Virus record (IMG/VR): IMGVR_UViG_3300045988_149468 | Span: 1-64,000 of that record | Source: a virus | Reading direction: 5' to 3' (one strand) | Length of the DNA: 64,000 nucleotides | Part shown: one piece after another, positions 5,886 through 59,829 of the stretch | How positions within the stretch are numbered: the stretch's first letter is position 1 | Layout: every line of letters starts with the position of its first letter | The notes under the pieces: generated by a model | What the model saw: only the letters and a program-made list of their open reading frames with translations | What the model was told of the DNA's origin: nothing | Databases searched by the model: none | Program-made: the position numbers and the translations under genes

Positions 5886-6010
5886 ATACCTTTAATTCGT
5901 GAACTACTCACGAGCTAAGCTCGTTGGCTTCCTAGGTAAGGTTACTATTGTAACTAATTTACTAGGCTCAAAAGATTGTTCCAATCTCTTATTTTTTTAT
6001 TATTGTAATA
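5886..6010 (-). ncRNA. candidate omega RNA and guide of the IS1341-like element
   Basis: In the minus-strand sense, structured sequence follows the tnpB stop (GTTAC-AATA-GTAAC and ACGAGC-TTA-GCTCGT hairpins). It ends at the inferred right end; the next ~20 nt of flank would be the guide. Confidence 0.45.
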
Positions 6011-7215
6011 TTCTCAATCCTTCATGTAATATATTTATACTTGCATTTATATCTCTATCATGATGCTTGCCACAATATGGACAAGTGAACTCTCTTATGT
6101 CTAATGGTTTTTTGCCTGTATTTTCACCACAATTAGAACATATTTGACTAGAAGGATAATATTTATCTACAAAAGAAATTGTTCTTCCATACCATTTAGC
6201 CTTATATTCTAATTGTCTTCTAAATTCATACCATCCTACATCTGATGCAGATTGAGATAAATATTTATTTTGTTGAATTTCTTTTACTTGTAAATCTTCC
6301 AAACATATTACTTGGTTTTCGTTTATAAGTTCAGAAGTTAATTTATGTAAAAAATCTTTTCTTTGATTAGCTATTTTTTCATGTAGTTTAGCAACTTTTA
6401 TTCTTTGTTTATTTCTGTTTTTACTACCTTTTTTCTTCCTAGATAACTTTATTTGTTCTTTAGCTAATTTATTTAATGATTTTTTCAAATATCTAGGATT
6501 AGGATATTTTATACCATCTGAAGTTATTGCAAAATCAGTTAATCCTAAATCTATACCAACTGCGAATTTACTTTTAGGTAACTGTTTTATTTCTTGATCC
6601 ACTAATATAGAAATATAATATTTATTATCAGGATTTTTAGATATTGTAGCTGATTTAATTATTCCATCTTTAGGTATTTGTCTATGTAATTTAATTCTAA
6701 CTAATGTTTTTAATTTTGGTAACTTAATATACTTGTCATCTATTATTTTTATTGTTTGTGTTTTTTGATTGTTATTTGTTGTATAATTATAATGATTATT
6801 CTTTTTAGATTTAAATTTAGGAAATCCGACTGATTTATCTCTAAAGAAATTTTTATATGCTTTGTCTAAATTCATTTGAGCATTAGCTAATGCTAAACTA
6901 TCCACTTCTTTTAACCATTGATATTCTTTTTTATACTGCGCAGGAGTATTATTTAACATTTTATTGTTTTCTTTATAATACTCTATTTTATCGTTTAACA
7001 TTTTGTTATATATAAATCTAACACTACCAAAACATTTAGAAAAATATATCTTTTGTTCTTTATTTGGATATAGTCTATATTTATATGCTTTTAACATTTT
7101 ATCACCTCCTTATACTATATAGTATTTCCATTTTAAGGTAAAAATAAACCTATTTTAACTATATTAAAAAGATAATAAAACGCCTTACAATGGAAATATA
7201 AAGGGATTTTTAATA
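5906..7215 (-). mobile_element. TnpB-only IS200/IS605-family (IS1341-like) insertion
   Basis: It has tnpB plus a subterminal hairpin at the right end (ACGAGC-TTA-GCTCGT). The right-end boundary at 5905/5906 comes from comparison with an uninterrupted paralogous sequence at about 5225-5290. The left-end boundary (about 7200-7215) is uncertain. A long-range inverted repeat, TATTTCCATT(T/G)TAAGG, lies at about 7121 and about 7185. Confidence 0.6.
6000..7097 (-). CDS. tnpB: TnpB (IS200/IS605-family OrfB), from a different lineage than the other two copies
   Basis: 'YKYRLYPNKEQ', 'VGIDLGLTDF', 'ICLEDLQVKEI' and 'CSNCGE...CPYCGKHHDRDINASINI' are present. Confidence 0.9.
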   Translation of the reverse strand: MLKAYKYRLYPNKEQKIYFSKCFGSVRFIYNKMLNDKIEYYKENNKMLNNTPAQYKKEYQWLKEVDSLALANAQMNLDKAYKNFFRDKSVGFPKFKSKKNNHYNYTTNNNQKTQTIKIIDDKYIKLPKLKTLVRIKLHRQIPKDGIIKSATISKNPDNKYYISILVDQEIKQLPKSKFAVGIDLGLTDFAITSDGIKYPNPRYLKKSLNKLAKEQIKLSRKKKGSKNRNKQRIKVAKLHEKIANQRKDFLHKLTSELINENQVICLEDLQVKEIQQNKYLSQSASDVGWYEFRRQLEYKAKWYGRTISFVDKYYPSSQICSNCGENTGKKPLDIREFTCPYCGKHHDRDINASINILHEGLRILQ

Positions 7216-7300
7216 ACAGATTGAAATATTAAATTAGTTGATCTATTTATTTTTAGGCAATAAAAAAAGAAGGATTAATATTAATCCTTCTATCTGTAAA

Positions 7301-8777: not shown

Positions 8778-8817
8778 AATATAACCTCCTAATTATTAAT
8801 TTATATTTTTGTTACCA

Positions 8818-8886
8818 CCTAAGAGGATAATTATCCTCTTAACGCTTAGGGCTTAAGGTATTGTTTTTAGCTGCCCTAACAACTTA
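8818..8886 (-). ncRNA. conserved two-hairpin RNA element, copy A
   Basis: The hairpins are 8820-8841 (AAGAGGATA/TATCCTCTT) and 8846-8852/8873-8879 (TTAGGGC/GCCCTAA). It is homologous to 11128-11197, with compensatory changes in both stems. Confidence 0.55.
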
Positions 8887-10971: not shown

Positions 10972-11127
10972 TTTATTTCCCTCCTGTTATTAATTTATAT
11001 TTATATTGTATATTAATTAATGTTATTTGTCAACTACTTTTTATGTATTTACTATGTTTTTTTATTAACTTGTATCAGGTAAGATCAGATACTAATTAAT
11101 ATTTTGTAGGTTGATTTGATTTGCTAA

Positions 11128-11197
11128 CCTAAGGGAATTAAATATTCCCTTAACGCTTTGGGCTTAATAGCCTTTTTAGAGTTGCCCAAACAACTTA
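11128..11197 (-). ncRNA. conserved two-hairpin RNA element, copy B
   Basis: The hairpins are 11130-11152 (AAGGGAAT/ATTCCCTT) and 11157-11163/11184-11190 (TTTGGGC/GCCCAAA). See copy A. Confidence 0.55.
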
Positions 11198-14829: not shown

Positions 14830-15634
14830 ATGTTACCAGTATTTAATGATTATATATTTTTTTTAAAAGAAAAAAATAAAGAATTAGATTTTCTAAAAGA
14901 GGGTATTTATTGGTATGATAGAAGCATCATAAAAGCTTTTGATAAAAAGGGAAACATTATAAAAATAGCAAGATTAAAAATAGATGATGATTTAAATTTA
15001 GAAATTAAAAAATATAAAAATAAAAATATGGAATTGGAAACATGGGAAGACACAATAAATAGAAATTTAAATCATTTAAATGATTTAGAAAAGAAATCAA
15101 AAGAAACAATTCATAAATATTTAAATATATATTTAGATAGTAAAATAGCAATTTTAAGTTCTGGAGGAAAAGATAGTTCAGTTACAACTTATTTAGTTAA
15201 ACAATGTTTTAATAATCCAAAAATAATATTTAACAATACTTCATTAGATTGTGTGGATACATATAGACATATTAAAAAAGAAAATAATTTAATCATAATA
15301 AATCCAAAAGAAGGATTTTATCAATGGAGAAAAAGATTAAATTTTGTGCCTACTAGATTTGCTAGAGCTTGTTGCAATATATTCAAAGAAGGTGCGATGA
15401 TAGATTATTTAGATAAAAACGATAAATATTTATTCTTTATGGGTATGAGAAATCAAGAATCTGCTAAACGTTCTAATTACACAGATGAATGGAAAAATGA
15501 TAAATGGAAAGGCAGGGAATGGAATGCGATATTGCCTATTAGAGAATGGTCAGAATTAGATGTGTGGTTATATATATTAAAGAATGATATTGATATAAAC
15601 CCTAAATATAAAAAAGGTTATAGTAGAGTTGGGT
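14830..15634 (+). CDS. PAPS-reductase-like (PP-loop ATPase) protein, exon 1
   Basis: The PP-loop 'ILSSGGKDSS' and the 'ARACCNIF' Cys pair are present. The frame runs into intron sequence after 'GYSRVG'. The track ORF 14830..15645 ends at an intron-borne stop. Confidence 0.75.
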
Positions 15635-15993
15635 GGACAAAATAAACGCCCCCTTATATAGTGATATACATTGAATAACATGGTGAACGTGTTTTATCAG
15701 CACGGTGTGTATTCTACGATTAGGAGTTATAGGAAATGATAACTAGAGAATACGCTAACAGGGAAGCCTAAGTCAAAAGATATGGTAATCCTGTGGTAAG
15801 GCTTTTGAAAAAAATATATTATAAGTTATTGTTTTTATTATAAAATATGGAAAGAATATAGAGAATTTCAAAAGCAAACTCAAACGACTATCCTGAGAGG
15901 GAGTAGGATGGAGATTGATACCATCCGAAGTGCCATGAATCTCTTATGAGATTATGATATAGTCTATACCATTGGAAACAATGGAGGAATATG
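15635..15993 (+). ncRNA. group I intron (no ORF) in the PAPS-reductase-like gene
   Basis: P1 pairs exon GGGT(15631-15634) with GCCC (15648-15651), giving a terminal U-G. Core strings are CCTAAGTCAA (15767-15776), ACGACTA (15884-15890) and GATATAGTC (15956-15964). A CCATTG-GAAA-CAATGG hairpin and a terminal G (15993) follow. Confidence 0.75.
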
Positions 15994-16445
15994 GTGCTAT
16001 AGCTTGTCCTTATTATACTAAATCAACTTGGATATTAGATGAATATTGGTATCCTAAAATGTACGACAGATGGCATAAAATATTGACTGAAGATTTTATA
16101 AGTAATAATAAAGACATAATAATGAATTGCACTGAAAAAGAATACCATATGTGTTGGAATGGTGGTAAATTAAGAGATGAACCCACACAAGAAGTAATTG
16201 AGCAATTCGCAGAGAGAGAGAAAGTAAATGTTAATGTAGCTAAAAATTATTTTAGTCATACTTGTAAGGAGTGTAGTAAGAAAATAAAAGATAAAAACAC
16301 ATTAGCGATGAATATGAAATTTAATGGTAGGAATATACAAGATATGTATTGTAAAAAACATTTAAAAGAAAAGTTAAATTTAACAGAAGATGATTGGGAT
16401 AATTATATAAAACAATTTAAAAATCAAGGTTGTGAATTATTTTAA
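15994..16445 (+). CDS. PAPS-reductase-like protein, exon 2
   Basis: The predicted junction reads ...GYSRVG-C-AIACPYYTKSTW, restoring a Cys-containing motif. The C-terminal region is Cys-rich (CKECSKK..., CKKH). Confidence 0.7.
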
Positions 16446-28089: not shown

Positions 28090-29430
28090 TGAAAACTTAT
28101 AAATATTTATTGACATATTGATGATTCTATGATATAATCTAATTATGATAATTAATAAGGGGAGTGATGAGATGAAATCTTTTATTGTTAGATTGTATCC
28201 AACTAAAGAACAAGAGATTCTGTTCTATAAACATATTAACTGTCAAAGATATGTTTATAATTGGGCATTGAATTTGAATAATGAATTATACAGAAAAGAT
28301 AAAAAGAAATATTCTTCTACTGAGTTAGGTAAAATGTTAACACAATATAAAAAACAAGAAGTGTGGTTGAGTGAAGTTTCTAATGCAACATTAAAAGAAT
28401 CAATTAGAAATTTAGATAAAGCTTATACTAATTTCTATAAGAAAAGAGCAAAATTGCCTAAATTTAAAAGTAAAAAGAAATCTAAATTATCTTTTTACAG
28501 CAGATATGACAAAATTAAATTTTATCAAAATAATACTGTTAATTTAGAAAAAATAGGTAAAGTTAAATATAGATCTAGTTATGATATTGATTTTACTAAA
28601 GAAAATTCATTTAAAAATCCTCATGTGAGTTTCAATGGTAGATGTTGGGTTCTCACGTTTGGATTAGAATTAAAAAATGAAGTTGACATACCAACAGACA
28701 ATGTTATTGGAATCGACTTAGGAATTAAATATTTAGCAGTATGTAGCGATGGAGTTGTTTATAAAAATATAAATAAAGATGCTTCTGTTAAAAAATTAGA
28801 AAAAAGACTTAAAAGATTACAAAGACAAGTGAGTAGAAAATATGAATTAAATAAGAAGGGAGGGAATCGTTACATTAAAACTAATAATATTAAAAAGTTA
28901 GAAAAAGATATTAAGAATATTCATCGAAGACTTAAGAATATAAGATTAAATCATTTACATCAAACAACTGCTGACATAGTGAAAACCAAACCATACAAAG
29001 TAGTTATGGAAGATTTAAATATTACAAATATGATGAAAAATAAATCAATAGCAAAACACGTTTCTAAATTGGGCTTATATGAGTTTATTAGACAAATGAA
29101 ATATAAATGTGAATGGAATGGTATTGAATTTATACAGGTAGATAGATATTATCCATCAAGCAAAATGTGTAGTAAATGTGGAAACATTAAACATGATTTG
29201 AAATTGTCGGATAGAAGATATACTTGTAAATGTGGATTAAATATTGATAGAGATTTTAATGCTAGTTTAAATCTTATGAATTATGGATTATCACATTAAA
29301 GATAACTATAATATGTACCCACTCGTTGATGGGGAATTTAAGTCCTGGGACTATCAATTACTAAAGTAGGTTCGCCGAAATAGGATAGGATGAATAGGAA
29401 AATAAATTTATAACTTTTTATAAGTTTTAA
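28090..29430 (+). mobile_element. TnpB unit (promoter, tnpB, structured 3' RNA) inserted between terS-like and terL
   Basis: TTGACA...TATAAT and the box at 28142-28158, then tnpB, then a structured tail (GGGGAATTTAAGTCC...). The element ends are not defined. Confidence 0.5.
28172..29299 (+). CDS. tnpB: TnpB (paralog of 1273..2415)
   Basis: 'FIVRLYPTKEQ', 'IGIDLGIKY', 'VMEDLNITNM' and 'CSKCGN...CKCGLNIDRDFNASLNL' are present. It shares 'RLKKLQRQVSRKYE' with copy 1. I place the start at ATG 28172 (RBS AAGGGGAG) rather than the track start at 28145. Confidence 0.9.
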   Translation: MKSFIVRLYPTKEQEILFYKHINCQRYVYNWALNLNNELYRKDKKKYSSTELGKMLTQYKKQEVWLSEVSNATLKESIRNLDKAYTNFYKKRAKLPKFKSKKKSKLSFYSRYDKIKFYQNNTVNLEKIGKVKYRSSYDIDFTKENSFKNPHVSFNGRCWVLTFGLELKNEVDIPTDNVIGIDLGIKYLAVCSDGVVYKNINKDASVKKLEKRLKRLQRQVSRKYELNKKGGNRYIKTNNIKKLEKDIKNIHRRLKNIRLNHLHQTTADIVKTKPYKVVMEDLNITNMMKNKSIAKHVSKLGLYEFIRQMKYKCEWNGIEFIQVDRYYPSSKMCSKCGNIKHDLKLSDRRYTCKCGLNIDRDFNASLNLMNYGLSH

Positions 29431-38631: not shown

Positions 38632-39045
38632 ATGGCAACTTCTGTTCAAGATATTTATAAACGATTTTTAGCACAAATAGGCAAAGATGTAATAGCTGAG
38701 TTAGAACAAGAATTAGCTGAAGAACTAATGTTAATTTATTTAGAAGGCGCTATTTCAATGTTTGATATTTGTGAAAAAGACTTAACAATAGAAAATAATG
38801 AGTTTAAAGAAGATTTAACATTAAATGAACAATATATATTAGCTGATGGTATGATTTTATATTGGTTAAAACCAAAAATAAATACTGAAAAAATGATAGA
38901 TTTAATAATTACAACTAGTGATTATAACATTAAATCACCTGCCAATCTATTAGACAAATTAAATACTTTATATAATGATAGTTTTTATAAATTTAGAAAT
39001 AGAATTAATCGTTATTCGTTCAAAGGGAAAAAGGTGAATGGATAA
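38632..39045 (+). CDS. head-tail connector/adaptor candidate
   Basis: ATG at 38632 follows an AGGAGGTG RBS. The call is by position only. Confidence 0.4.
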   Translation: MATSVQDIYKRFLAQIGKDVIAELEQELAEELMLIYLEGAISMFDICEKDLTIENNEFKEDLTLNEQYILADGMILYWLKPKINTEKMIDLIITTSDYNIKSPANLLDKLNTLYNDSFYKFRNRINRYSFKGKKVNG

Positions 39046-39478
39046 TGAGTTATTTTGAAAGATATAAAATTAGAACACAAAGAGCATTAAATTGTAAAGA
39101 ATCTTTGTTAAAAGATGCTGAATATAGATTTCAACAGGTTATGGATGAAGCATTAACCACTCATATTGTTCAATATACTAAAAATGGTGAATTTCCAGAT
39201 TTAAAAAAGAATGGAACTATTAGAGTAAATATAAATGATATTACAAACAATGATAAATCAGCTTATGATGAAAAGAAAATTTTAGTTGATAAAAATGCTG
39301 ACATGGATGTTGGTTCGTACATATGGTTTAATAATTGTTGGTGGATAGCTGTATTTAAAGAACATCAAAGTTTAAATTTATATAAGAAATTGATATTTAA
39401 AGTTTGTAATCAAATAGTGAAATATAAATTAAATGGTACAACATATGATATACCTGTTAATATACACAATATGACGCT
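39045..39478 (+). CDS. head-tail joining protein, exon 1 (candidate)
   Basis: The ORF continues to an intron-borne stop at 39515. The predicted 5' splice site follows ...ATGACGCT. Confidence 0.45.
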
Positions 39479-39812
39479 AAACTGTATGGTGTCTTGCTAT
39501 AGAAATATAGCATAGGAAAATTGGGTAAAATCGGTCATATATGTAGTGATACATATGGTAAGAAAGGCTAAATCTATTTTTTATAGACAAGCTAATACCG
39601 AGTTAATTAATTAGATTACGAAAGGCTAATTAACAATGTAGAGCGTAGAAGGTGAATAAATATAATCCTTCCAAGAGTATCCAACATCTTAACGGATAAT
39701 GCTGAAGATGAAAATGTACGCCAAACTGAGTTGGAATTAACCAACTGATGAAAATGAGAGAAATCTCCAGAGCAGTAGATAAAAAGCTACTGGATAATAA
39801 TTATTGATATAG
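39479..39812 (+). ncRNA. probable self-splicing (group I-like) intron, subclass unclear
   Basis: This ~334-nt ORF-free, densely hairpinned insert sits in an otherwise gap-free operon. A P1-like pairing, GACGCT(39473-39478)/GGTGTC(39488-39493), has a terminal U-G. There is a GNRA-capped stem (ATATGTA-GTGA-TACATAT). The 3' end reads ...GATATAG. Confidence 0.5.
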
Positions 39813-40341
39813 TGATGGTATGAATGATGCTAGATATATGTCTTATGGCGATAGTAAATGTAGATTTGTTATAGGTAAAAATCCAATAACTGAAAATATA
39901 AATGTTGGAGCAAGATTCTTAGTAAATCATGATGTACCTTACAGAGTTACAAATAGAGTTGATTACGAATATAACGGATATACAAATGGTAGTGACGGTA
40001 TAATGAACTTTATACTATTACAAGTACCTAGATTGCCAGATGATGATATTGAAGATAATATTGCTTATAATAATTTTGGTAAATATGTTGATGAATTATT
40101 TGTTGGTAATGATATTTGTTACATAGGTGAAGAGAATGAATATATATTTAGAACAAAACAAATGATAAGTTATCAGCTTGAAACTGATACAAAAGAAATA
40201 ACTATATCTGTTGAAAATAATATATGTACGTTGCATTGTAATTATAATATGGATCTAATAGGTAAGACAGTAAGATTAATTGTTAATAATGATGAAGGTA
40301 ATTTTATAATTGATAAACAAATTTTAATTAAGGGGGTGTAG
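39813..40341 (+). CDS. head-tail joining protein, exon 2 (candidate)
   Basis: The frame is open from 39808. The junction would read ...NIHNMT-L-DGMNDARYMSYG. Confidence 0.45.
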
Positions 40342-43778: not shown

Positions 43779-45672
43779 ATGGCAGATCATCAATTTAATA
43801 TTAAATTAGGTATTAAAGTTGAAAAAGGTGATTCTGAAAAACAGTTAGAGAATCTCAAAAAATCATTAGAAGAGAAGAAAATTACTTTAAAATTAGATGT
43901 AACTAAGCTTAATGAACAATTAAAAACATTTAAAGATTCGTTAAGTGATGTTAATAAAAAATTAAATGATGCTTTTAAGTTAAATAATGGTGCATTAGAT
44001 AATTTAAAGAATTTAAAAACCGTATTAGAGGAAATCAACAAATTAAGTGGTAAAACTAAAATACAAATTAATAATAGTAAAGACGTAAACACAATTACTA
44101 AAAATTTAGAAACACAGAAACAAAAGTATGCTGAATTAATAAGGTTGAAACAAAGCCTTGAAAAACAAAGAGCTAAAACAACTAATGCTGAATCGTATAA
44201 TGCATTAACAAGAGAAATTGATTTAGTTTCACAAAAAGCAGAAGAATGTAAAACTAAACTTAGTGAACTAACTAAGATTAAGTTAAATGCCGACATGACT
44301 AAAAGTATGGCATCGCAATTTCAAACAATTCAAAAAGAAGCTCAATCCTTAAAAACTTCATTAGAAAATACTTTAAAAAATTCTAATTTAACAATGACTC
44401 AGCAACATGATTTAGAAAATCTCTTAAAAACTATCGAAAAAATCAAAGGTAAAAAAGTAGATTTAAAAACTGATGGAGCAAAAACTAAATTACAAGATAT
44501 AAAAACCAATTTAGAAAGTATTAAAGAAAAATATTCATCAATTAAAATAGATATAAAAACTAACGACAATATTAGAAGTGCGATAAAAACAACTAATGAT
44601 TTTATTAACAAAATTAATTCTGCTCAAAAATCTAAAACTGGTGTAAATTCATTTATTGATGAAGGAAAATTAAATAATTTAAAAACTAAAGTTAAAGATT
44701 TAAGAACTCAATTGTCCGATGTACATTTAAAACCTAATGTTGAATCAGAGATTGAAAACATTATAAAAAAATTAGATAGATGTAAGGTTGAGTTTAAAGA
44801 ATTACAAAATTCAGCTAAATTAAGCATGAAAATAGATGGTGATGTAAATTCACAAACTAAACAGATTGATACTATGTTAAATAAGCTAAAAGAAATGAAA
44901 CAATGGAAAATTGGTTCAAATGCTTATATAGATGAATCTAAAATCAATGAAGCGATATCTAAATTAGAACAGTATAAAAATGAATTGAAAAATTTAGACG
45001 TTAATGATGAAAAAGTTGCATCTGAATTTGAGACTATAAAAAGTAAAATCAATGAAACAACACAAGAAATAAAAGAATTTCAAAATCAAGCTAAGCAAGG
45101 TATGAAAATTGATAGCAATAATGCTAGTATAGATTCATTAAAAAACAAAATCACTCAGTTAAAAAATGAAGAAAAATTAACTGCTGAACAAGCTGAACAA
45201 CTTAAACAAAAATTAAATCAAATATCACAAATGGATGTTGGAAAACAAGCTAATGCTATAAAACATTTTAGAAACGAATTAAAACAAGCTACAGATGAAA
45301 CTTCCAGATTGCAAACTGGTGTTAAAAGAACAAGCACATTCTTTAGTAATCTATATTCAACAATGTCTACATTCTCTCTAGGTAATATTATAAGTATGCA
45401 AATAACCAAAGCTATTTATGGTATAAGTGATACTATTAGAGAATTAGATAAAGCATTTGTTGGGTTAACTAAAGTTGCACCAGATTCATTTCATGGTACT
45501 GCTGAAGAATTAGAAAATGTAAGACAAAAAGCAGTAGAGGTTGGACAAGATGTTGCTCGTAGTGCTACGGATATAATTAATTCAACTGCATCAGCTTTAC
45601 AGTTAGGCGTAAGTAATATTGATAGAGCTATGGAATATGCTAAAAATGTCAATTTATACGCAAATGTCGCAG
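43779..45672 (+). CDS. tail tape measure protein, exon 1
   Basis: It has a long coiled coil, then the TMP core '...SATDIINSTASALQLGVSNIDRAMEYAKNVNLYANVA'. Track ORF 43779..45698 ends at an intron-borne stop. Confidence 0.8.
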
Positions 45673-46043
45673 AAACAACATTCTGCCTATGTTTATAAAG
45701 AGCATAGCAAACTCATTGAATTGCTGGAAAGCCCTAAAGCTCAAATGCCACAACATAATTGGAAACGATAAGTGTGATGGAACGAAAGTAGAAAAAAGTT
45801 TTGAGATAGTATAAGGTTAAACCCTAAGTACTAAAATAATGGGTAATCAGCCTCCAAGTCTCTATAAAGTGAGAAAGGATAAACGACTATTCCGTGACGG
45901 GAAGTACACATATAAGCTATTGATATGTGGAAGTGGTGAGGTTCTTTTTATTGAAAAAGAATGTGATATAGTCTACTCTTATATGAAAGTATAAGAAGTT
46001 CATAAGAGAACTGTCTAGCGTAGCGAGCTAGATGAATACAAGG
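45673..46043 (+). ncRNA. group I intron 1 of the tape-measure gene
   Basis: Features are the P1 hairpin GCAG|AA-ACAACA-TTCTGC, TTGAATTGCTGGAAAG, CCCTAAGT, ACGACTA (45883-45889), GATATAGTC (45965-45973) and the shared 3' module GAAGTTCATAAGAGAACTG (45995-46013). Boundaries are set by reading-frame restoration. Confidence 0.75.
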
Positions 46044-46190
46044 ATATTTCAGAAGAGGATTCAGATAAATATTTAAAATCAATAATGTCAGCGTATGGTG
46101 GCGTTGATGAATCATTGGATGCTATGAGTACCAAAGTTAAAGGTGCTGGTGATAATTACAGTAGATTAACTGATTATATGGATCAGGCAG
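46044..46190 (+). CDS. tape measure protein, exon 2
   Basis: In frame it reads (D)ISEEDSDKYLKSIMSAYGGVDESLDAMSTKVKGAGDNYSRLTDYMDQA. Confidence 0.65.
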
Positions 46191-46563
46191 ATGTTTGCCT
46201 AGTTGTATAGTAATATGCAACCGAAAACAACTCTAATTGCAGGTAATGGGTAAAGCCTTACACTACAATATGCCAGAAATGAGTATATGATAGTGCGAAA
46301 GCGGAAACAACGTAAGGATTCTCATATGGTTAAATCCTAAGTGGGAAATGATTAAATTCATACAATCCCTGTTCATGCAACCAAGCTCCCCTGTATATAA
46401 CGAGGAGAAGGCTCAACGACTAATTGTACATTACAAGCCAATGGTAATGGAAAAGGGTTGCTCCTATTTATATAGGATGAAGAAATAGTCTAATCTTATG
46501 TGAAAGCATAAGCAGTTTGTAAGAGAACGGCATAAATCTTGCGAATTTATGTGAATATGAAAG
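46191..46563 (+). ncRNA. group I intron 2 of the tape-measure gene
   Basis: Features are the P1 hairpin AGGCAG|ATGT-TTGCCT, AATTGCAGGTAA, AATCCTAAGT, ACGACTA (46416-46422) and AAATAGTC (46483-46490). The 3' module variant is GCAGTTTGTAAGAGAACGG. It is most similar to intron 4. Confidence 0.7.
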
Positions 46564-46574
46564 AAACTATGCAG
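46564..46574 (+). CDS. tape measure protein, micro-exon 3 (11 nt by my junctions; 21 nt under an alternative 3' splice site)
   Basis: AAACTATGCAG lies between two intron cores. It is required to keep exons 2 and 4 in frame (..DQA-ETMQ-NNFAVTS..). Confidence 0.45.
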
Positions 46575-46922
46575 GTGAAAGTTTAATCGCCTAGTAATAC
46601 AAGTGATTGTATTATTTTACTTTTTGAATTGCTGGAAACTCCTTAGAGTCTTAAATACTACAACATAATCTGAAAAGATAAGTGTGAAAGTTTAAAAAAT
46701 TTAAGAATTGGAAAATCAGCAGGTAAGATTCTAAGTTGATTATAAAATCAATATGAATAAACTTCAACGACTATTCCTGGCAAGGAAGTACATTCAAGCG
46801 AATGGAAGTGGAAAGCTCTTATAATAATTATAAGATAAAGATATAGTCTAGTATCCTATTGAAAAATAGGGAAGTTCATAAGAGAACTGATTAGGAAGTA
46901 GCGAACCTAATTGAATATAACG
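46575..46922 (+). ncRNA. group I intron 3 of the tape-measure gene
   Basis: Features are TTGAATTGCTGGAAAC, ACGACTA (46767-46773), AGATATAGTC (46839-46848) and GAAGTTCATAAGAGAACTG (46871-46889). It is most similar to intron 1. Confidence 0.7.
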
Positions 46923-47411
46923 AATAATTTTGCTGTTACATCAGCCGACATAGGTGAAGCATTAATGAGAAGTGCTTCAGCTTTTAAATCTAATGGTATG
47001 GATATAAATGAAGGTATAGGATTAATTGTAGGTGCTCAAGAAACGGTTCAAAATGCGGGTAAAGTAGGAAATAGTTTTAAAACAATGATAAATCGTCTTA
47101 ATGGGGTTACTTACTCTATGAAAGAAGGAGATGTTATTGCTAACAAAACTGCACAAGCATTTGAAAAATTAGCAGGTATCAAAATAGTAGATTGGGATAC
47201 TAACAAAGTAAAAGATGCTTATACTATCTTTAGTCAATTAGCAGATAAATGGGATGATATGAACGATGTTCAAAAAAATGGTATAGCAGACGCATTAGGT
47301 GGTGCTCACCATTTGAACACATTACAAGCTTTAATGAACAACTGGGACACTGTCGTACAATATCAACAAGAATATAACGATGGATTCATGGTTGGATCAG
47401 CTGAAAAAGAG
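46923..47411 (+). CDS. tape measure protein, exon 4
   Basis: 'NNFAVTSADIGEALMRSASAFKSNGMDINEGIGLIVGAQETVQNAGKVGNSFKTMINRL' is the classic TP901-type TMP core. It ends ...GSAEKE. Confidence 0.8.
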
Positions 47412-49000
47412 AAACAACATTCTCCGTATGTACAGAAATGTGCATAGGACACAACTTGAATTGCAGGTACAACCTAAGAGCCTTACACCACAATATTGGA
47501 GAAATCACAATATGAAGGTACGAAAGTAGAAACAACGTAAGGATAGATATAAGGTTAAATCCTAAGTATCTAAATGTAATTAAAGTAATTATTACATTAC
47601 AATGGTAGTTCATGCAGAGAAATTCCTAAATTTAATTTATAAAATCATTGACAATATTTACCATTGGTGTTATTATTTAAATATAATAATTAATAAGGAG
47701 GTGATTATTATGGCAAAAAAATATAATGAAAAAGATATTATTGAAATTTTAGAAAAAAATAATGTGATATTATTATCAAATTATAAAAATAGCACAACAG
47801 AATTAAAAATGATTTGTAGCTGTGGAAAGCATTTTAGTAAATCGTTTAAAATAATGAAACGAAGTGGAAATTTTAAATGTAATGATTGTATAAAAAAAGA
47901 ACAAGTAAAAAAACAAACTATGCCTTATGAAATTGCAAAACAGAGAGTTGAAAACTTAGGATATAAATTGTTAACAACCAAAGAAGAATATATTAAAGCT
48001 AGTGAAAAAAACAAATTACAATGTCCAAATGGGCATATATATGAACAAATATTATTAGATTTATTTAAAGGACACAGATGTAAAAAATGTGCATCTAAAA
48101 TAAACGGAGATAAATCTAAATTTAAATACGAAGATGTTAAAAAGGTTATAACTGATTTAGGATTTGAATTATTATCAGCAGAATATGTAAATAATGATAC
48201 TCCTTTAAAAGTTAAATGTAAAAAATGTAATCATATATTTTCCCCAACTTTACATAATTTAAAAAACGGAACTGGCTGTCCAAATTGTTATTCAAAAATT
48301 AGGGGTAAATCTACAATCATACCATACGAGGATAGAGTAAATTATGTTGAAAATTTTAATTATAAAATCTTAACACCAAAAGAAGAATATATTAATGGTG
48401 AAAATAAGGTGAAATTAAAATGTTCAAAAGGACATATTTATGAAGCTAGATTGCATGATTTTTACATTGGAAATAGATGTCCGCATTGTAAGGAATCTAA
48501 AGGTGAAAGAAAAATTGAAAGATTTTTAAAAGAAAATGACATTAGATTTGAAAAACAATACATTATAAAAAGATGTAAATTTAAAAGATATTTACCTTTT
48601 GATTTTTATTTACCTGATTATAACCTTCTTATAGAATATGATGGGAAGCAACATTTTGAAATAAGTGATTATTTTGGGGGTTATGAAAGTTTCATAGATA
48701 CCAAGATAAGAGATACAATTAAAAACATTTATTGTCAAAATAATAACATAGATTTATTGAGAATCTCTTATTGGGATTATAAAAATATTGAGAATATATT
48801 GGCTGATAAATTAAAATTAAACAAGGAAAACTTTCAACGACTAGAGTTGAGATACTCGTAGGATATAAGCGATTGATATCCGAAGTGGGTTGCCCCTAAC
48901 GTAAAGACGAGGGTGAAGAAATAGTCTGCTCATCTATAGAAATATAGAGAAGTTCATAAGAGAACTGCATAGGTATAGCGAATCTATGTGAACAAAAAGG
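47412..49000 (+). mobile_element. group I intron 4 of the tape-measure gene, carrying a nuclease ORF
   Basis: The 5' part (GAG|AA-ACAACA-TTCTC, AATTGCAGGTAC, AATCCTAAGT) and 3' part (ACGACTA 48837-48843, AAATAGTC 48919-48926, GAAGTTCATAAGAGAACTG 48949-48967) are split by a 1.15-kb ORF. That ORF has its own TTGACA promoter and box (47680-47696). Confidence 0.75.
47710..48861 (+). CDS. intron-encoded homing-endonuclease candidate: four tandem zinc-ribbon modules plus a Vsr/DUF559-like PD-(D/E)XK nuclease domain
   Basis: There are four repeats of '...C..G/C......F..G..CP.C'. The C-terminus is 'GERKIERFLKENDIRFEKQY...LPFDFYLPDYNLLIEYDGKQHFE'. ATG at 47710 follows a GGAGGTG RBS. The ORF 3' end overlaps the intron core. 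Confidence 0.65.
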   Translation: MAKKYNEKDIIEILEKNNVILLSNYKNSTTELKMICSCGKHFSKSFKIMKRSGNFKCNDCIKKEQVKKQTMPYEIAKQRVENLGYKLLTTKEEYIKASEKNKLQCPNGHIYEQILLDLFKGHRCKKCASKINGDKSKFKYEDVKKVITDLGFELLSAEYVNNDTPLKVKCKKCNHIFSPTLHNLKNGTGCPNCYSKIRGKSTIIPYEDRVNYVENFNYKILTPKEEYINGENKVKLKCSKGHIYEARLHDFYIGNRCPHCKESKGERKIERFLKENDIRFEKQYIIKRCKFKRYLPFDFYLPDYNLLIEYDGKQHFEISDYFGGYESFIDTKIRDTIKNIYCQNNNIDLLRISYWDYKNIENILADKLKLNKENFQRLELRYS

Positions 49001-52000
49001 AATGCTAGATTTATAGATAGCATAGAAGGTAAAATAACAAAATTAAAAGAACAATTTAATAGTTTGGTTACAACTACAATAAGTACGGATAGTGTTAAAA
49101 CATTTTTAGATGTATTAACAAGTGTATTAGAAACAGTTAATGGTATAGTAAAAGCATTTGATAATATAGGTATGTCTGCTCCTTTGATGATTGGTGTTTT
49201 TGCTAGTTTAGGTAAAACTATAAAAGCTTTAGGTACAGGTTCAGCATTAACTGTGACTGGGGGAAGTATATTTTCAAATTTATTAGGTAGAGCTGGTGTT
49301 CAAATACCACAAACTCTACAACAAAGTACTACTGCAACTGAAGGATTTAGAGTAGCTTTAACTAATGTAAGTGGAGCATCTATGTTAGCTTCAGCAAAAA
49401 CTGCTGTTTTAACTGCGGGTGTAACATTATTAAATACAGTTATGACAGGATTAGCTATTGGTGCTATTGCTTTAGTTTGTAAAGCTTTATATGATTATGT
49501 CAATGCTAATCAAATTGCACATGATAGAATAGAAGATAATATTGATACTACTAAAAGTAATATTAATAGTTATACCAAACAAAAGAATAGCTTAAAAGGT
49601 ATTGCAGAAGAATATGATAATTTAGCGGACAAAACTAATAAAAGTACAAAAGAATCTGAAAGATATCATGAATTACAACAACAAATAGCTGATACTGCAC
49701 CAGATTTAGTTTTAGGACAAGATTCTAATGGAAATCCAATTTTAGCTTTAAATGGATCATTAGAAGATTATATAGATAATTTAGATAGTGCAATAAAAAG
49801 AGAACAAGAGTTTTTAAAAATTCAACAAAATGCATTAGCAAATACTTCAATAGGGAATTTAGTTAAATATACTAAAGATAGAAGTATAGTTGAGTCATCT
49901 CTTGGGAATATGACAAACTTTTCAGATGCATGGGACGATAGTGGTTCATGGTGGAATAAAAAAGGATTAAAAAATGCTAAAGATGGCGCTGATGCCTATG
50001 TTCGTATAGTGCAAGAAAGAAATGATAAAGTAAATAAACTTAATAAAACTTTAACAGAACATTTTACTGAAGTTTCTCAAATAGAAGCAGAACAACAACA
50101 AAAAGTATTTAATGAATTAGGAGATGAATATCTTTATAAAAATTATAATAAGTTATCTAAAGACGGAATTAAGAATACTAAAAATATTATGGATACACTT
50201 ATTGGTAATTTTAACTGGGGTAGTGAAGTCGTAGATACAGTAGCGAAACAAAAGGATTTCATAGAAAGTTTTGATGAAATAGCTTCTAAAGTTGGTAAAA
50301 GCAAAGAAGAAATGCAAGAATGGAATAAAACTTTAAGTGAAGCTAATTATGCTTTCCAAGAAACAGGTGATTATGAACAATTCCAAAAAGACATAAGTGG
50401 TATAACTGAAGAATTAGAAAAAATGACTGGAATTGACGCTGAAAAATGGGCAATTGGATTTACACCAGCTTTACAAGGTTCATTAGATGCTGATTCTATA
50501 GCATTGAGTAAATTTTTAAAGAATTATAATAAAACACTTACAGAACTTAAATCTGGTGATAAAGTAGCAATAAGAATACAAGCCGAATATGAAGATACCA
50601 ATGATTTCATACAAAAGATAACTAATATGGAAGATAGACAGCAACAGATTGATTATATGGTTAAAATTAATACTGGTGAAGTTGAATATGGCAATCTTCC
50701 TTACCAAATTCAAGAAATGATTAAAGGTACTCTTGATGGTGGTAAAACAATGCAAGATTGGGAATCTGATGTTGTTATGAGAATTGCTACTGAAATTCAA
50801 TCTAATGGTGAATTAGATGATAAAACATTTGATTTAATTGCTAGAATGTTAAATGGTGAATTAACCGATACGGAAATTAAAGCAGGGATAACATTACCTA
50901 GTGGTGATGTATTAAATGCACAACTTGTTGGTGAAATAAATGAGGTTAATAAAAATAAAGATAAAAACATTAAAGTAGGAATTGAAGCTGATTCAGAGAA
51001 ATTAGATGAAGATTTATCTACCATTTTAGGTGATAAAGAAGAAGCTAAACAGTTAAAAGTTGATTTAGTTACTAATTTTAATGAAGATAAATTTGAAACA
51101 TTCAATGAATTAATTAAAGATATGGATTCTGATAAACAAATTCAAATAGCTACTGCTTTTGTTAATAATGGTGATGCAGATCCAGATGAAATAGAACAAT
51201 TTATATCATCTTTACCTGATGAAATCCAAAAGATAGTTAGAATTAAGTATGAAGAAAGTGGCAAAAATGATGTTGAAAATAGTGTGTTTAATGAATCTAA
51301 AGTACAGACAATTATACTTGATGCTGATGATGAAAAGGCACAAGCTAAGATTAAGAAATTAGGTAAAACGCTAGATGATATGGACGGTGTTGATAGAAAT
51401 ATTAAAGTTGGTATTATTGAAAATGCTGGTACAGGTAATGTAAAAGATATGATGAAAGCATTAGATTTAGTAAAAGATTTACCAGAAGAAAAAAGATTGG
51501 ATGTTATAAGTAATTTACAAGATATAATGGTAAACTTTTCTGAAGCTGACAAAAAACAACTTAAACCTAAAATAATGGAAATACTTGGTGATAATTCTGA
51601 TGCTAATTCTAAAATAGATAACACAAACGCAAAAGATACCCCAGACAAGAATTTGGATATTAATGCTAACGATAACGCTAGTAATAAAATTCATAAGGTA
51701 CAACAAGAAAGTATAGCCGACAAATTCTTCAACATAGTTGTTGGCGTAAAAGAAACCGTTGCAGGTGCATGGAAAGCTCTAACTAGTGGTGTAGGTGGAT
51801 TATATTCTAAAGGTGATAATAGTACTATAAAACACAAGTCAATTAGTGAATTTTCTAATATAGGAGATAACCCAATAGATGTTGATAGTGCTACACCAAC
51901 AGCTCAAAGTATGGATTTTAACTCTATGTCGGATAGTCCTTCAGTAGTAGATTCTGATTCAACAATAGATAATACAAGCTCAGCTATTAGTAAAGTAAAA

Positions 52001-53935
52001 GCATTTACTACTCAAGCATTAAGAGGATTTACAGATATAGGTAAAACAACTACAATAGGTACAAAAATAGACATAAAGAAAAACACATTAGATTCTATAG
52101 AGTATGCTGTAAACTTAATGCAAGAATTAGAATATCGTATTGATAATGTCAATGATAAATTATCTTTATTGGATGTTAAAATGGAAAATGCAGTAGGTAC
52201 TAAGAAAATTGAATACTTACAAAAACAAAATGCGTTATATGAAGAACAAGCTAAATTACAAAAAGAACTTTATGATAATTTAACTCAAGAAAAGCAAATA
52301 GTTAAAGATAAATTAAGAACATATGGTTTTACAATAGATGCACAAGGGAATCTTAGAAATTATGAAGAAACACTTCTTAAAATGGAAAAAAGAGCTAAAG
52401 AGCTAGAAGACCAAGCCGAAAAAACTAGTAAAAAAGCATCAGATTATGATACTAAAAGTAATAGTAAGTCTAGTAAGAAAACTAAAAAGTCATTACAAAA
52501 GAAAGCCGATAGTTCTAAAGACGCTTCAGATAAATATAAAGAAAAACTTGAAAAGGTAAAAGATTTAACGGAACAATATCTAAAAATGCAAAGAGATGAA
52601 ATTCCAGATGCAGAAAAAGAATGGTTAGAAATGCAAAATGCTATTAAAAAAAATAATGATGAAATAGAAAAGTTAGAATTAGAAGATAAATTATATAAAT
52701 TCAAAAATAGTGTTACTGGATTGACTAATCAATATGACATATGGGGAGATAAAATTGACTTAATAGATACTAAGCTAAACAATTCATTACAAACAGATAA
52801 GGTTTCTTTATATCAACAAAAATTATCAGCTTTAAATAAACAACTTGAAATACAAGAAAAAACATTAGAATCTTTAAAAAATCAATTACCAGTTTATCAA
52901 GAAGCATTATCGAAATATGGTGTTCAGTTTGGAGAAAATGGTAATATCATCAATATGTCTAATGTATTAAATGAATATCAAAATAGTGAAGATTTAGAAA
53001 AGATTAATGATTTAATGAAAGAATATAATGACTTAATCAGAGATACAATTCCAAATGCACAACAAGAATATGAAGATTTGAATAATGCAATTCAAGATGT
53101 TTATAATAGTCAATTAGATGTTGTAAAAGATATTGAAGATAAGATTACTGATGTTATTAAGGATCAAATTGATAAACGTAAAGATTTAATTCAAAAACAA
53201 TATGATAAAGAAATTGAATTACTTAATAAACGAAAAGATGAATATAATAACAATAAAAATACAAATGATTATTATAAAAACTTAGAAGAAGCACAATCTG
53301 AAATTGATAAAATACAAGCTAAAATTAATAGACTAAGTTTTGACAATTCATTATCTAGTAAAAGTAAGATAAGCGATTTAATGGATGATTTAAAAGATGC
53401 ACAAGATAAATATAATGATTTAGTTAACGATAGACAAGACGATTTAATTAATAATATGTATGACGATGAAATTGATAAACTTCAAAAAGAACAAGAAGAT
53501 AAAATACAAGAGCTTGAAGATAAATGGTCAGATAGTAAAATAGCTGAATTAGTTGCTAATGCGTTAGGTACACAACAATTTATAGATATTGACGGAAATG
53601 TTCATAATTTACAAGATACACTGCTTAGTTTTGCTGAAGAAAGTGGAGATGCATTAGGAATATTAGGTGATAAGATTAAAAGTGAATTAGTATTAAATCT
53701 TCAAGATGCTTTAGAATATGCTAAAGATTATAGTAATATATTTGACAACTTAGGATTAAAACATCTAGGTAATGTAAACTATAGTGATAAACTTAATAAC
53801 AAAACATTACGAGTTGATGATATAAGTATTAATGTATATGGTACTGACAACATGGATGAACAAAAAATAGCTAAAGAAGTAGCTAAACAACTTGATGGTA
53901 AATTTAGTGAAATAACAAATGGAGGACTTTTATAG
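49001..53935 (+). CDS. tape measure protein, exon 5
   Basis: It starts 'NARFIDSIEGKITKLKEQFNSL', which joins ...GSAEKE as in uninterrupted TMPs (from my recollection of the family). Hydrophobic segments and ~1,400 aa of coiled coil follow. Confidence 0.8.
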   Translation, partial: NARFIDSIEGKITKLKEQFNSLVTTTISTDSVKTFLDVLTSVLETVNGIVKAFDNIGMSAPLMIGVFASLGKTIKALGTGSALTVTGGSIFSNLLGRAGVQIPQTLQQSTTATEGFRVALTNVSGASMLASAKTAVLTAGVTLLNTVMTGLAIGAIALVCKALYDYVNANQIAHDRIEDNIDTTKSNINSYTKQKNSLKGIAEEYDNLADKTNKSTKESERYHELQQQIADTAPDLVLGQDSNGNPILALNGSLEDYIDNLDSAIKREQEFLKIQQNALANTSIGNLVKYTKDRSIVESSLGNMTNFSDAWDDSGSWWNKKGLKNAKDGADAYVRIVQERNDKVNKLNKTLTEHFTEVSQIEAEQQQKVFNELGDEYLYKNYNKLSKDGIKNTKNIMDTLIGNFNWGSEVVDTVAKQKDFIESFDEIASKVGKSKEEMQEWNKTLSEANYAFQETGDYEQFQKDISGITEELEKMTGIDAEKWAIGFTPALQGSLDADSIALSKFLKNYNKTLTELKSGDKVAIRIQAEYEDTNDFIQKITNMEDRQQQIDYMVKINTGEVEYGNLPYQIQEMIKGTLDGGKTMQDWESDVVMRIATEIQSNGELDDKTFDLIARMLNGELTDTEIKAGITLPSGDVLNAQLVGEINEVNKNKDKNIKVGIEADSEKLDEDLSTILGDKEEAKQLKVDLVTNFNEDKFETFNELIKDMDSDKQIQIATAFVNNGDADPDEIEQFISSLPDEIQKIVRIKYEESGKNDVENSVFNESKVQTIILDADDEKAQAKIKKLGKTLDDMDGVDRNIKVGIIENAGTGNVKDMMKALDLVKDLPEEKRLDVISNLQDIMVNFSEADKKQLKPKIMEILGDNSDANSKIDNTNAKDTPDKNLDINANDNASNKIHKVQQESIADKFFNIVVGVKETVAGAWKALTSGVGGLYSKGDNSTIKHKSISEFSNIGDNPIDVDSATPTAQSMDFNSMSDSPSVVDSDSTIDNTSSAISKVKAFTTQALRGFTDIGKTTTIGTKIDIKKNTLDSIEYAVNLMQELEYRIDNVNDKLSLLDVKMENAVGTKKIEYLQKQNALYEEQAKLQKELYDNLTQEKQIVKDKLRTYGFTIDAQGNLRNYEETLLKMEKRAKELEDQAEKTSKKASDYDTKSNSKSSKKTKKSLQKKADSSKDASDKYKEKLEKVKDLTEQYLKMQRDEIPDAEKEWLEMQNAIKKNNDEIEKLELEDKLYKFKNSVTGLTNQYDIWGDKIDLIDTKLNNSLQTDKVSLYQQKLSALNKQLEIQEKTLESLKNQLPVYQEALSKYGVQFGENGNIINMSNVLNEYQNSEDLEKINDLMKEYNDLIRDTIPNAQQEYEDLNNAIQDVYNSQLDVVKDIEDKITDVIKDQIDKRKDLIQKQYDKEIELLNKRKDEYNNNKNTNDYYKNLEEAQSEIDKIQAKINRLSFDNSLSSKSKISDLMDDLKDAQDKYNDLVNDRQDDLINNMYDDEIDKLQKEQEDKIQELEDKWSDSKIAELVANALGTQQFIDIDGNVHNLQDTLLSFAEESGDALGILGDKIKSELVLNLQDALEYAKDYSNIFDNLGLKHLGNVNYSDKLNNKTLRVDDISINVYGTDNMDEQKIAKEVAKQLDGKFSEITNGGLL

Positions 53936-58815: not shown

Positions 58816-59829
58816 ATGTATTTTAATTTAGAACACAAACAGATGGTAGAAAATCGTGGCTATATTTATATTTACAGTTATGATAGAAAAGAAGTAACAT
58901 TAGATAGTAAAAATAAGAATAAAAATAAAATTCATATAAGAGTGAAATGTCCTTATTGTAAGAAAAAATATGACATAGATATTTATACATTTAGAAATGG
59001 TTCACATTGTAAATATTGTTGTCATGAATATAAAAAATCATTTGCATATTATATTGAAGAAGAATTAGGGTTAGACCTTAATGATGTTTGGGATTGGGAA
59101 GAGAATAGCAGACGAGGAATTAATCCTTGGGATATATTAATAAAAAGTGATAAAATAATTTATATATGGTGTCAAGATAAATGGTATCATGGTAGTTATA
59201 AAACAGCACCTAGCTTATTTTACAAAGGAAGAAGATGTCCCTATTGTAATCCTTTTGCTAGTCATAGAGTGCATAAGTTAGATAGTTTTGGATATTTATA
59301 TCCAGAGAAAGCTAAGTACTGGGATTATGAAAAAAACAAAAATAAAAAACATAAAACTCCATTTGATGTGGCACCTCATAGTACTATTGAAAAATATTGG
59401 TTTAAATGCGAAAAATGTAATACACCATTTGAGAGAAGTTTAAACAGCATGAATCGAGAAGATACAGGGGTAGTATGTGAACAATGTAATGGGTCTCAAC
59501 TAGAACAAAAAGTAAAAAAAGTTTTAGACAAATATAATCAATTTTATTATAGAGAAAAAGAATTTAATAATTTAATAGGTCATGGAAAAAGAAATTTAAG
59601 ATTTGATTTTTATTTACCTAATCATAATTTATTAATAGAATGTAATGGTAAACAACATGAAGAATTTACATCTTTCTTTTGTAAAAATAAAGCAGACTTT
59701 GAAAGACAATTAGAGCACGATAGACGCAAGAAACAATACTCAATTGACCATAACATCAACTTCTTAGAAATTTGGTATTATGATATAGATAATATAGAAC
59801 AAATACTAACAAAGCAATTAAATCTATAA
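58816..59829 (+). CDS. free-standing paralog of the intron nuclease (zinc ribbons plus Vsr/DUF559-like domain)
   Basis: 'CPYCKKKY...CKYCC' and 'RRCPYCNP...' are present. The C-terminus is 'LEQKVKKVLDKYNQFYYREKEF...LRFDFYLPNHNLLIECNGKQHEE'. It has its own promoter and box (58785-58801). Confidence 0.6.
   Translation: MYFNLEHKQMVENRGYIYIYSYDRKEVTLDSKNKNKNKIHIRVKCPYCKKKYDIDIYTFRNGSHCKYCCHEYKKSFAYYIEEELGLDLNDVWDWEENSRRGINPWDILIKSDKIIYIWCQDKWYHGSYKTAPSLFYKGRRCPYCNPFASHRVHKLDSFGYLYPEKAKYWDYEKNKNKKHKTPFDVAPHSTIEKYWFKCEKCNTPFERSLNSMNREDTGVVCEQCNGSQLEQKVKKVLDKYNQFYYREKEFNNLIGHGKRNLRFDFYLPNHNLLIECNGKQHEEFTSFFCKNKADFERQLEHDRRKKQYSIDHNINFLEIWYYDIDNIEQILTKQLNL

Follow-up and report, generated by a model that had tools for sequence, protein, structure and literature searches.

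The tape-measure locus and the predicted spliced product

The stretch of DNA analysed here (the window; 64,000 nucleotides (nt), positions 1 to 64,000 of the IMG/VR record IMGVR_UViG_3300045988_149468) belongs to a phage of about 140 kb from the human gut. An open reading frame (ORF) scan of the region 43779-53935 recovered the three plus-strand fragments listed in the initial annotation (43779-45698, 46911-47447 and 49064-53935), together with a 383-amino-acid (aa) ORF at 47710-48861. The region is very probably a single tape-measure gene interrupted by four IA2-type group I introns, designated I1 to I4, which would be spliced out of the transcript. Gene callers split this tape measure into "proteins" of 639, 178 and 1,623 aa plus an endonuclease, so that, for a widespread group of gut phages, predictions of tail length and counts of protein families are in error as long as the introns are left in.

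Exon 1 (43779-45672, 1,894 nt) begins with the ATG at 43779, and its end, GTCGCAG, is set by the intron-less allele of the related phage L017; the exon 1/I1 junction carries a 1-nt ambiguity (GCA/G...G/AT, slashes marking the ends of the intron). Exon 2 (46044-46188, 145 nt) has no in-frame start codon of its own and aligns with homologs without gaps, exon 3 is a micro-exon of 13 nt (AAACTATGCAGGT, 46564-46576) encoding (A)NYAG, exon 4 (46923-47411, 489 nt) matches positions 85-201 of the Pfam family PhageMin_Tail, and exon 5 (49001-53935, 4,935 nt) is open up to the stop codon at 53935, its KEN-RF junction being gap-free against homologs. All five exons lie on the plus strand. Joined, they form a 7,476-nt frame with no internal stop, encoding 2,491 aa (279.5 kDa), in agreement with the total of 7476 nt and the product of about 2,490 aa proposed initially. 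The tape-measure protein determines how long the tail is; by the rule of thumb from phage lambda of about 0.15 nm per residue, 2,491 aa would correspond to a tail of roughly 370 nm. The boundaries first drawn for I1 (45673-46043) and I4 (47412-49000) coincide with those given by alleles lacking the introns, but for I2 and I3 these alleles give 46189-46563 and 46577-46922 instead of 46191-46563 and 46575-46922; as both 5' sites move by 2 nt, exon 2 measures 145 and not 147 nt and the micro-exon 13 and not 11 nt, with the total length unchanged.

The same correction replaces the residues ETMQ, placed at this junction by the initial annotation, with NYAG, which both the homologs and the intron-less alleles require. 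Homologs read D-L-A-N-Y-A-G-N-N-F and the corrected join reads D-Q-A-N-Y-A-G-N-N-F (MDQA-NYAG-NNFAV); NYAG is identical in five of five Clostridioides-phage homologs. The junction peptides of the spliced product would be NVNLYANVADISEEDSDK, LTDYMDQANYAGNNFAVTSADIGEALMR and ...GFMVGSAEKENAR, and the predicted nucleotide strings across ligated junctions are GTCGCAGATATTTCAG, GATCAGGCAAACTATGCAGGTAATAATTTTGC and GAAAAAGAGAATGCTAGA. Omission of the 13-nt exon would give the string GATCAGGCAATAATTTTGC and a frameshift with a stop at residue 690 (a product of about 689 aa).

Pfam searches revealed a complete PhageMin_Tail domain (PF10145) in the spliced segment (profile positions 1-201, 77.3 bits versus a cut-off of 33.2), of which the fragment 46911-47447 by itself reaches only positions 85-201. 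Homologs of the spliced protein carry a tape-measure annotation; its closest relatives in culture come from the phiCD211-like Clostridioides phages, with 44-51% amino-acid identity, and the alignment to their proteins contains no gaps across all four joins. The 1,623-aa ORF begins at an internal TTG downstream of conserved in-frame sequence, and the 178-aa fragment (exon 4) is on record on 11 contigs. Among 5.8 billion proteins, the spliced segment matched exon-sized fragments only and no cDNA-derived sequence, and a scan of 185,579 reference genomes found no relatives of the protein. The gene is flanked upstream by a YomN-family gene (called in the relative L143) and downstream by a YOMG_N-family gene.

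Structure and subgroup of the introns

The introns I1 (45673-46043, 371 nt), I2 (46189-46563, 375 nt) and I3 (46577-46922, 346 nt) contain no ORF, and I4 (47412-49000, 1,589 nt) carries the endonuclease ORF in its P6 loop; all four are on the plus strand, and I2 and I3 are separated by 13 bases only. Each contains an in-frame stop codon 18-36 nt into the intron (26 nt in I1) and ends in G (G46043, G46563, G46922 and G49000), as set by the empty alleles. Most of the sequence strings by which the elements had first been recognised are indeed common to all four: AATTGCWGG is exact in each, ACGACTA with WATAGTC is present in each, and so is the 3' module; only YCCTAAGT is exact in three, I3 carrying TTCTAAGT. 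In the 64 kb there are four copies of the 3' module AGTTCATAAGAGAACTG, all of them inside the introns (chance expectation 0.34; four copies in none of 100 shuffles). The I1 copy (45996-46043) comprises a P9.1 hairpin, a P9.2 hairpin and then GAAUAC and AAGG; the plus-strand copies in I2, I3 and I4 lie at 46513-46563, 46872-46922 and 48950-49000, respectively. Judged by their pairwise identity of 60-67%, the four elements are related and are not recent copies of one another.

Searches with the Rfam covariance model RF00028 (Intron_gpI; gathering score 50 bits) matched I1, I2, I3 and the 3' half of I4, which bears out the group I assignment made initially. I3 (73.4 bits, E = 1e-16) and I2 (50.5 bits, E = 7e-10) score above the gathering score, and the 3' half of I4 gives a truncated match of 38.7 bits (E = 7e-9, with 48818-49010 scanned alone); whole I4 has no match because the 1.2-kb ORF interrupts it. 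I1 and I4, which fall under the cut-off, are tied to group I by their 60-67% identity to the other elements, and between the 5' half of I4 and the corresponding parts of the I1 and I2 copies in L008, a relative 99.5% identical to the window there, the identity is 74-76%. Rfam is insensitive for this group of introns, since at the gathering threshold it found no intron in five related phage loci and missed even the annotated intron of phiCD211; an Rfam miss, therefore, does not show absence. Over about 80% of its length, I1 also shares 68-75% identity with introns of Bacillus, Listeria and Clostridium phages, and it matches 231 Staphylococcus phage records, with about half of I1 covered among the matches listed.

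An alignment of the 3' halves of 11 introns (the four described here and relatives from L015, L016, L002, L005, L006 and Listeria phage LPJP1) produced a consensus fold with P7, P7.2, P8, P9, P9.1 and P9.2, in which 94.3% of the cells pair, versus 33-42% in slid controls. Compensatory changes occur at 15 of 30 pairs, in P7.2 (all six pairs covary), P8, P9, P9.1 and P9.2, and the guanosine-binding helix P7 (GACUA/UAGUC) is invariant in all 11 introns; on four of five measures none of 500 shuffles matched the observed alignment, and on the remaining one, further pair types, nine did. The covariation of the hairpins indicates that the 3' module is a structured RNA and part of the intron. P7.1 is present in I1, I3 and I4 (UUCC.../...GGAA versus GAGU.../...ACUC) and is reduced in I2, and the helices P3 to P6 were seen only in the Rfam alignments. 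The IA2 subgroup is characterised by P7.1/P7.2 hairpins between P7 and P3' and by an extended P9 domain with P9.0, P9.1 and P9.2 (PMC4227781); with P7.1/P7.2 plus P9.1/P9.2 in their predicted folds, the introns belong to IA2.

Empty alleles and intron content of related phages

Relatives of the phage in IMG/VR include L008 (99.5% nucleotide identity), L015 (95%; IMGVR_UViG_3300045988_132453), L016 and L017. For every one of the four sites an empty allele exists in a natural relative, and the junctions are thereby fixed to within one base. At the I1 site, L017 reads GTCGCAG followed directly by ATAT; at the I2 site, L015 and L017 read GGATCAGGC followed by AAACTATGC(A/G)GGT; the I3 site is empty in L008, which reads AAACTATGCAGGT followed by AATAATTTTGC, and also in L142 and L143; and at the I4 site L016 reads AAAAAGAG followed by AATGCTAG. 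In L015 and L017 the micro-exon thus adjoins exon 2 directly, and in L008 it adjoins exon 4. These alleles complement the gap-free alignment to homologs, the comparison that had been suggested for verifying the joins.

BLAST of the spliced coding sequence (CDS) against the relatives showed a variable intron content. L140 and L141 contain I1, I2, I3 and I4; L008 and L143 contain I1, I2 and I4; and L142 contains I1, I2 and I4 together with a 1,267-nt intron near CDS position 3260, which lies inside exon 5 (about window position 49719) in both L142 and L144. The four-intron layout is base-for-base identical in two independent samples, L140 and L141 (139,830 bp, labelled human gut metagenome), so it is no assembly artefact. 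L015 has five introns: at the I1 site, at I3, an element of a different type ("type B") at CDS position 2190, at a site near CDS position 2505 and at the I4 site, where the intron is ORF-less and 362 nt long. In the L015 locus (2899-7239), a 45-nt exon lies between two of the five introns, and two introns contain endonuclease ORFs of the I4 family (228 and 363 aa).

Seven intron sites occur among the close relatives within about 1.4 kb of coding sequence, with three to five introns per genome in this gene, and the more distant Clostridioides phages add further sites. Judging from these records, the high intron count is a property of the clade and not a peculiarity of one genome. The published maximum found is three group I introns per phage gene, in Twort orf142 (PMC10136302), and the polymerase and terminase genes of Bastillevirinae likewise have at most three group I introns each (PMC11878797); four therefore exceed the published cases found, and no denser cluster of group I introns in a phage gene was among the records found. 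The four introns had been called exceptional, which is correct with respect to published cases, but L015 has five, Clostridioides phage pCD1602_4 has three and phiCD211 already has one annotated.

Guide pairing at the 5' splice sites

A P1 hairpin including the end of the exon folds for all four introns, as was noticed initially. In I1, it is formed by GCAGAA/UUCUGC (45669-45686), the last exon base being G; in I2 (46185-46200), AGGC of the exon is paired with GCCU, and UU with an AG that belongs to the intron, the last exon base being C; in I3 (46571-46595), it includes the canonical U46576·G46589 pair, and the Rfam model places the 5' splice site after the same U46576; in I4, it is formed by GAGAA/UUCUC (47409-47424). 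In I2 and I4, a 4-bp P10 (AAAC/GUUU and AAUG/CAUU, respectively) directly adjoins P1. The guide sequence varies with the exon, being CAG/CUG in I1, GAG/CUC in I4 and AAG/CUU at the L015 site near CDS position 2505, and orthologous introns show compensatory changes in P1: GCAG/CUGC in I1 here versus GCGG/CCGC in L015, and GCAGGU/GCCUAG in I3 here versus GCGGGU/GCCCAG in L017. Such changes between orthologs are the pattern expected if splicing is under selection. From these data we infer splicing in vivo.

Several observations weigh against the reading of the gene as one interrupted by four introns. The score of I1 with RF00028 (43.8 bits; E = 4.5e-9 in a 3.9-kb scan and 7.4e-8 in the whole window) is below the gathering score, Rfam found no match in the 5' half of I4 scanned alone, and P10 is weak in I1 and I3. 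No contiguous intron-free protein across all four sites was present among the 5.8 billion proteins searched with the spliced segment, so the fully spliced sequence is unconfirmed by any one natural sequence. The canonical U·G at the 5' splice site occurs in I3 only, I2 having C-G and I1 and I4 G-C (or A-U), and the P1 of I1 and I4 contains no wobble pair at all; efficient splicing of these two introns, therefore, cannot be assumed. Given the 1-nt ambiguity, the base could be A at I1 and I4, although in the L015 ortholog of I1 it is G under both readings. For the Tetrahymena ribozyme, the U·G pair is described as conserved and as a requirement (PMC1891724), and the last 5' exon base across known group I introns is "virtually always a U (or exceptionally a C)"; the documented exception is the group B IStrons, of which BcISt1 splices after G in vivo (PMC4227781). 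Because proven ribozymes such as BcISt1 also do without the U·G, its absence was not taken as excluding group I membership; it is still a real departure.

Two other placements of the junctions were considered. Hand enumeration of 5' sites after a nearby U for I1, I2 and I4 found none that preserves both the frame and the terminal G. If the terminal G is taken from the conserved TGAA, the 3' exons grow by 9-10 nt; three residues are then gained at I1 and at I3, the frame is lost at I2 and I4, and the junctions disagree with the empty alleles.

The putative intron-encoded endonuclease and a probable mechanism

The 383-aa ORF of I4 (47710-48861, plus strand) encodes a putative homing endonuclease. 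It starts with an ATG preceded by an AAGGAGG ribosome-binding site, and its stop codon lies inside P7.1; a promoter-like site at 47648-47676 (plus strand; TTGACA-17-TATTAT with an upstream TG, 11 of 12 positions) is the best match in 45600-49100 and is a match to the consensus only. The product matches phrog_559 ("HNH endonuclease", 1e-81), phrog_9084 (homing endonuclease) and phrog_7140 (intron-encoded nuclease), and it contains DUF4379 treble-clef zinc-finger repeats above the Pfam cut-off. Its C-terminal domain gives weak matches, below the cut-off, to PvuRts1I-like_N (6.6e-5), DUF559 (0.011) and DUF2726, which are families of the PD-(D/E)XK type; a PDB search revealed no sequence match and a search of NCBIfam gave nothing useful. 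Homologous ORFs are found in two introns of L015, namely in the I1 ortholog (228 aa) and at the site near CDS position 2505. The gain and loss of these ORFs, together with the clean empty alleles, fit homing; endonuclease activity of the product and homing of the introns are both inferred.

The td intron of phage T4 is an IA2 intron with a free-standing endonuclease ORF, I-TevI, which is looped out of a peripheral stem, has its own expression signals and makes the intron mobile by homing. It is a single intron in another host gene, and its endonuclease is of the GIY-YIG family, whereas the I4 ORF has zinc-finger repeats and possibly a PD-(D/E)XK-like domain.

The most likely mode of expression would begin with one precursor transcript holding four independent IA2 ribozymes, in each of which the last 3-6 exon bases would pair with the internal guide sequence to form P1. 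Free guanosine would attack the 5' splice site, the terminal G of the intron would dock and the exons would be ligated, giving the 7,476-nt frame and the 2,491-aa tape-measure protein, while the in-frame stops 18-36 nt inside the introns may halt ribosomes ahead of the ribozyme core. The I4 endonuclease, made from its own ribosome-binding site, would presumably cut intron-less alleles of co-infecting phages, with repair copying the intron in; I1 to I3 would be ORF-less members of the same intron family. The introns gather in the sole well-conserved stretch of the protein, the PhageMin_Tail core, where target sites would be stable.

Relation to other group I introns and to IStrons

The intron kind is known; the density is extreme, and the notable features are the 13-nt exon and the splice sites after G or C. 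The IA2 introns of Firmicutes phages (Twort orf142, kayviruses, and Bacillus, Listeria and Brochothrix phages) likewise have P7.1/P7.2 and P9.1/P9.2 hairpins, but here the host gene is the tape measure and only one of the four 5' splice sites follows U. In Twort orf142, too, more than one intron interrupts a gene and two of the introns flank a very short exon; it has three introns and a 23-nt exon, compared with four introns (five in L015) and a 13-nt exon here. Among the cited exons between tandem group I introns (23 nt in Twort and 34 nt in Coxiella), the 13-nt exon is shorter than either. The locus could serve as a natural model for homing, for intron turnover and for splicing where ribozymes are closely spaced, a 13-nt exon included. 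The tape-measure gene is split in phiCD211 as well, where Intron_gpI is annotated between two "tail length tape measure protein" CDSs, and also in AR1086-1, ES-S-0173-01, ES-S-0107-01 and pCD1602_4. In these phiCD211/phiCDIF1296T-like phages the gene has one to three introns, most of them at positions not used here, the only shared position being that of intron A of pCD1602_4 at the I3 site; several of their introns are of type B.

The ribozymes were also compared with those of IStrons, namely CdISt1 of C. difficile (group A), and BcISt1 and the IStrons of C. botulinum phages (group B) (Tourasse et al. 2014, PMC4227781). IStron ribozymes, too, are IA2 with P7.1/P7.2 and P9.1/P9.2, and a GAAUAU or GAACAA motif follows P9.2; the IStron of phage c-st has the AGUUCAUAAGAGAACU hairpin in common with the introns described here, and its P9.1/P9.2/GAAUAU module matches the 3' module of I1. 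Group B IStrons are inserted behind GG or AG, and their last bases are CGG or CAG; they are the only group I introns reported to splice after G (PMC4227781), as I1 and I4 would do, and I1 and I4 end in GG. Group B IStrons such as BcISt1, however, keep a U·G shifted by one base, whereas in I1 and I4 the pair one base further in is not U·G either. IStrons also carry an IS200/IS605 or IS607 insertion sequence, its transposase ORFs flanked by an inverted-repeat stem, in contrast to the introns here, which contain neither such a sequence nor a transposase, I4 having instead a homing-type endonuclease in P6, and IStron sites are scattered, whereas these introns sit at fixed sites in one gene. Since the insertion sequence is absent, the introns are not regarded as IStrons despite the likeness of the ribozymes. 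An unannotated IStron is present in L006 (Clostridioides phage ES-S-0173-01, 63277-63604 and downstream), where the final part of a terminase-like ORF contains TTGAT, with a ribozyme 75% identical to I1 inserted directly behind it and a 369-aa TnpB gene downstream of the ribozyme.

It may be, although the odds are rather against it, that I1, I4 and their relatives in L015 and L016 form an endonuclease-mobilised IA2 lineage without an insertion sequence, sister to the group B IStron ribozymes and with the splice site after G in a fully Watson-Crick P1. If so, this would be a mode of 5' splice-site recognition undescribed for group I introns, with a bearing on the relation between phage homing introns and IStrons, and with sites after G and no U·G nearby, ordinary phage introns would join BcISt1, so far the only exception to the U·G rule shown by experiment. 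A pattern search of IMG/VR for the I1/I4-type 5' end matched at least 119 stretches, with one true relative, L072, among the matches listed.

Alternatively, I1 and I4, and perhaps all four elements, could be miniature IStrons, that is, ribozymes left after the loss of IS605/IS607 and transposed as DNA with a transposase acting in trans. The P9.1/P9.2 hairpins followed by GAAUAY/GAACAA, the motif that precedes the insertion sequence in IStrons (PMC4227781), would be explained in this way, being found in the c-st IStron and in L006 as well, and so would the position of I1 and I4 after AG with a terminal GG; the presence of three TnpB genes in the window also speaks for it. This explanation is nevertheless improbable: only 4-6 nt lie between GAAYAH and the 3' splice site, with no inverted-repeat stem or insertion-sequence remnant, the ORF-less introns (346-375 nt) are smaller than the smallest reported IStron (482 nt; PMC4227781), and no TnpA-like ORF was present among the ORFs scanned, the scan being partial. 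Moreover, homing-type endonucleases occupy the P6 of I4, of the I1 ortholog in L015 and of the L015 intron near CDS position 2505, and fixed sites in one conserved gene with clean empty alleles are a homing pattern.

The tandem of I2, the 13-nt exon and I3 might also serve alternative splicing, in which skipping of the micro-exon would give a truncated protein of about 689 aa beside the full tape measure. Documented cases of skipping are the 23-nt exon that two IA2 introns enclose in Twort orf142 and the 34-nt exon of the Coxiella 23S rRNA (PMC10136302), and skipping here would lead to the stop at residue 690; but I2 and I3 are only 60% identical and their guide sequences differ, differences that favoured inclusion in an engineered tandem-intron study (PMC10136302), and some relatives lack I2 and others I3, so the arrangement is not conserved, which makes such a role quite improbable.

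That the elements are dead relics, the gene being permanently split and the tail built from separate fragments of 639, 178 and 1,623 aa, is highly improbable: gene callers do annotate separate ORFs (in phiCD211 and in metagenome gene calls) and three of the four 5' splice sites are non-canonical, but exon 2 (145 nt) and the 13-nt exon, which have no start signals, are in frame and encode residues conserved in homologs, NYAG among them, compensatory changes maintain the ribozyme cores and P1 pairings, the PhageMin_Tail domain would fall into four pieces, and the TTG start of the 1,623-aa ORF leaves conserved in-frame sequence upstream of it.

Other elements in the window and in related phages

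The initial annotation counted six introns in the window; four are those of the tape-measure gene, and two gaps elsewhere look intron-like by eye or by homology, but the Rfam search of the whole window revealed no group I intron beyond the tape-measure ones. The gap at 15646-15971, between a PAPS-reductase ORF (14830-15645, Pfam 1e-28) and an ORF at 15972-16445, contains CAAACGACTA...GATATAGTCTA and a P9-like hairpin, and by eye it looks like another candidate IA-type group I intron, with no Rfam match at E <= 1; it is probably the PAPS-reductase candidate proposed earlier. The gap at 39516-39819, between ORFs 39045-39515 and 39820-40341, aligns with the type B element, which splits the tape-measure gene in L015 (4644-4993), pCD1602_4 (twice) and ES-S-0173-01. 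The type B copies share a P7-like pairing that covaries (GCGUA/UACGC at 39516-39819 versus GCAUA/UAUGC elsewhere), and those in the tape-measure gene follow U and end in G; Rfam detects none of the type B copies, and, from these features, type B is probably a group I subtype poorly covered by the Rfam model.

The window contains three genes for TnpB (IS605 OrfB/Cas12f-like), two on the plus strand (1273-2415 and 28145-29299) and one on the minus strand (6000-7097). RAGATH-18 matches of Rfam lie 45-52 nt downstream of both plus-strand genes, at 2467-2527 (63.6 bits) and 29344-29400 (37.8 bits, below the gathering score), positions where a TnpB guide RNA or the right end of a transposon would lie. 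An ORF at 58816-59829, between tail genes, encodes DUF4379 zinc-finger repeats like those of the I4 endonuclease and has its own ribosome-binding site and a terminator-like hairpin; a location inside another intron was considered for it, but no ribozyme motifs flank the ORF and it appears to be free-standing. In pCD1602_4 (L004), a Fusobacteriales-1 RNA motif (2013-2131, 97.3 bits) is located upstream of the tape-measure region. Two Pistol self-cleaving ribozymes are encoded on the minus strand of the window, at 8813-8884 and 11123-11195, with scores of 58.6 and 63.6 bits, respectively, both above the Rfam gathering score.

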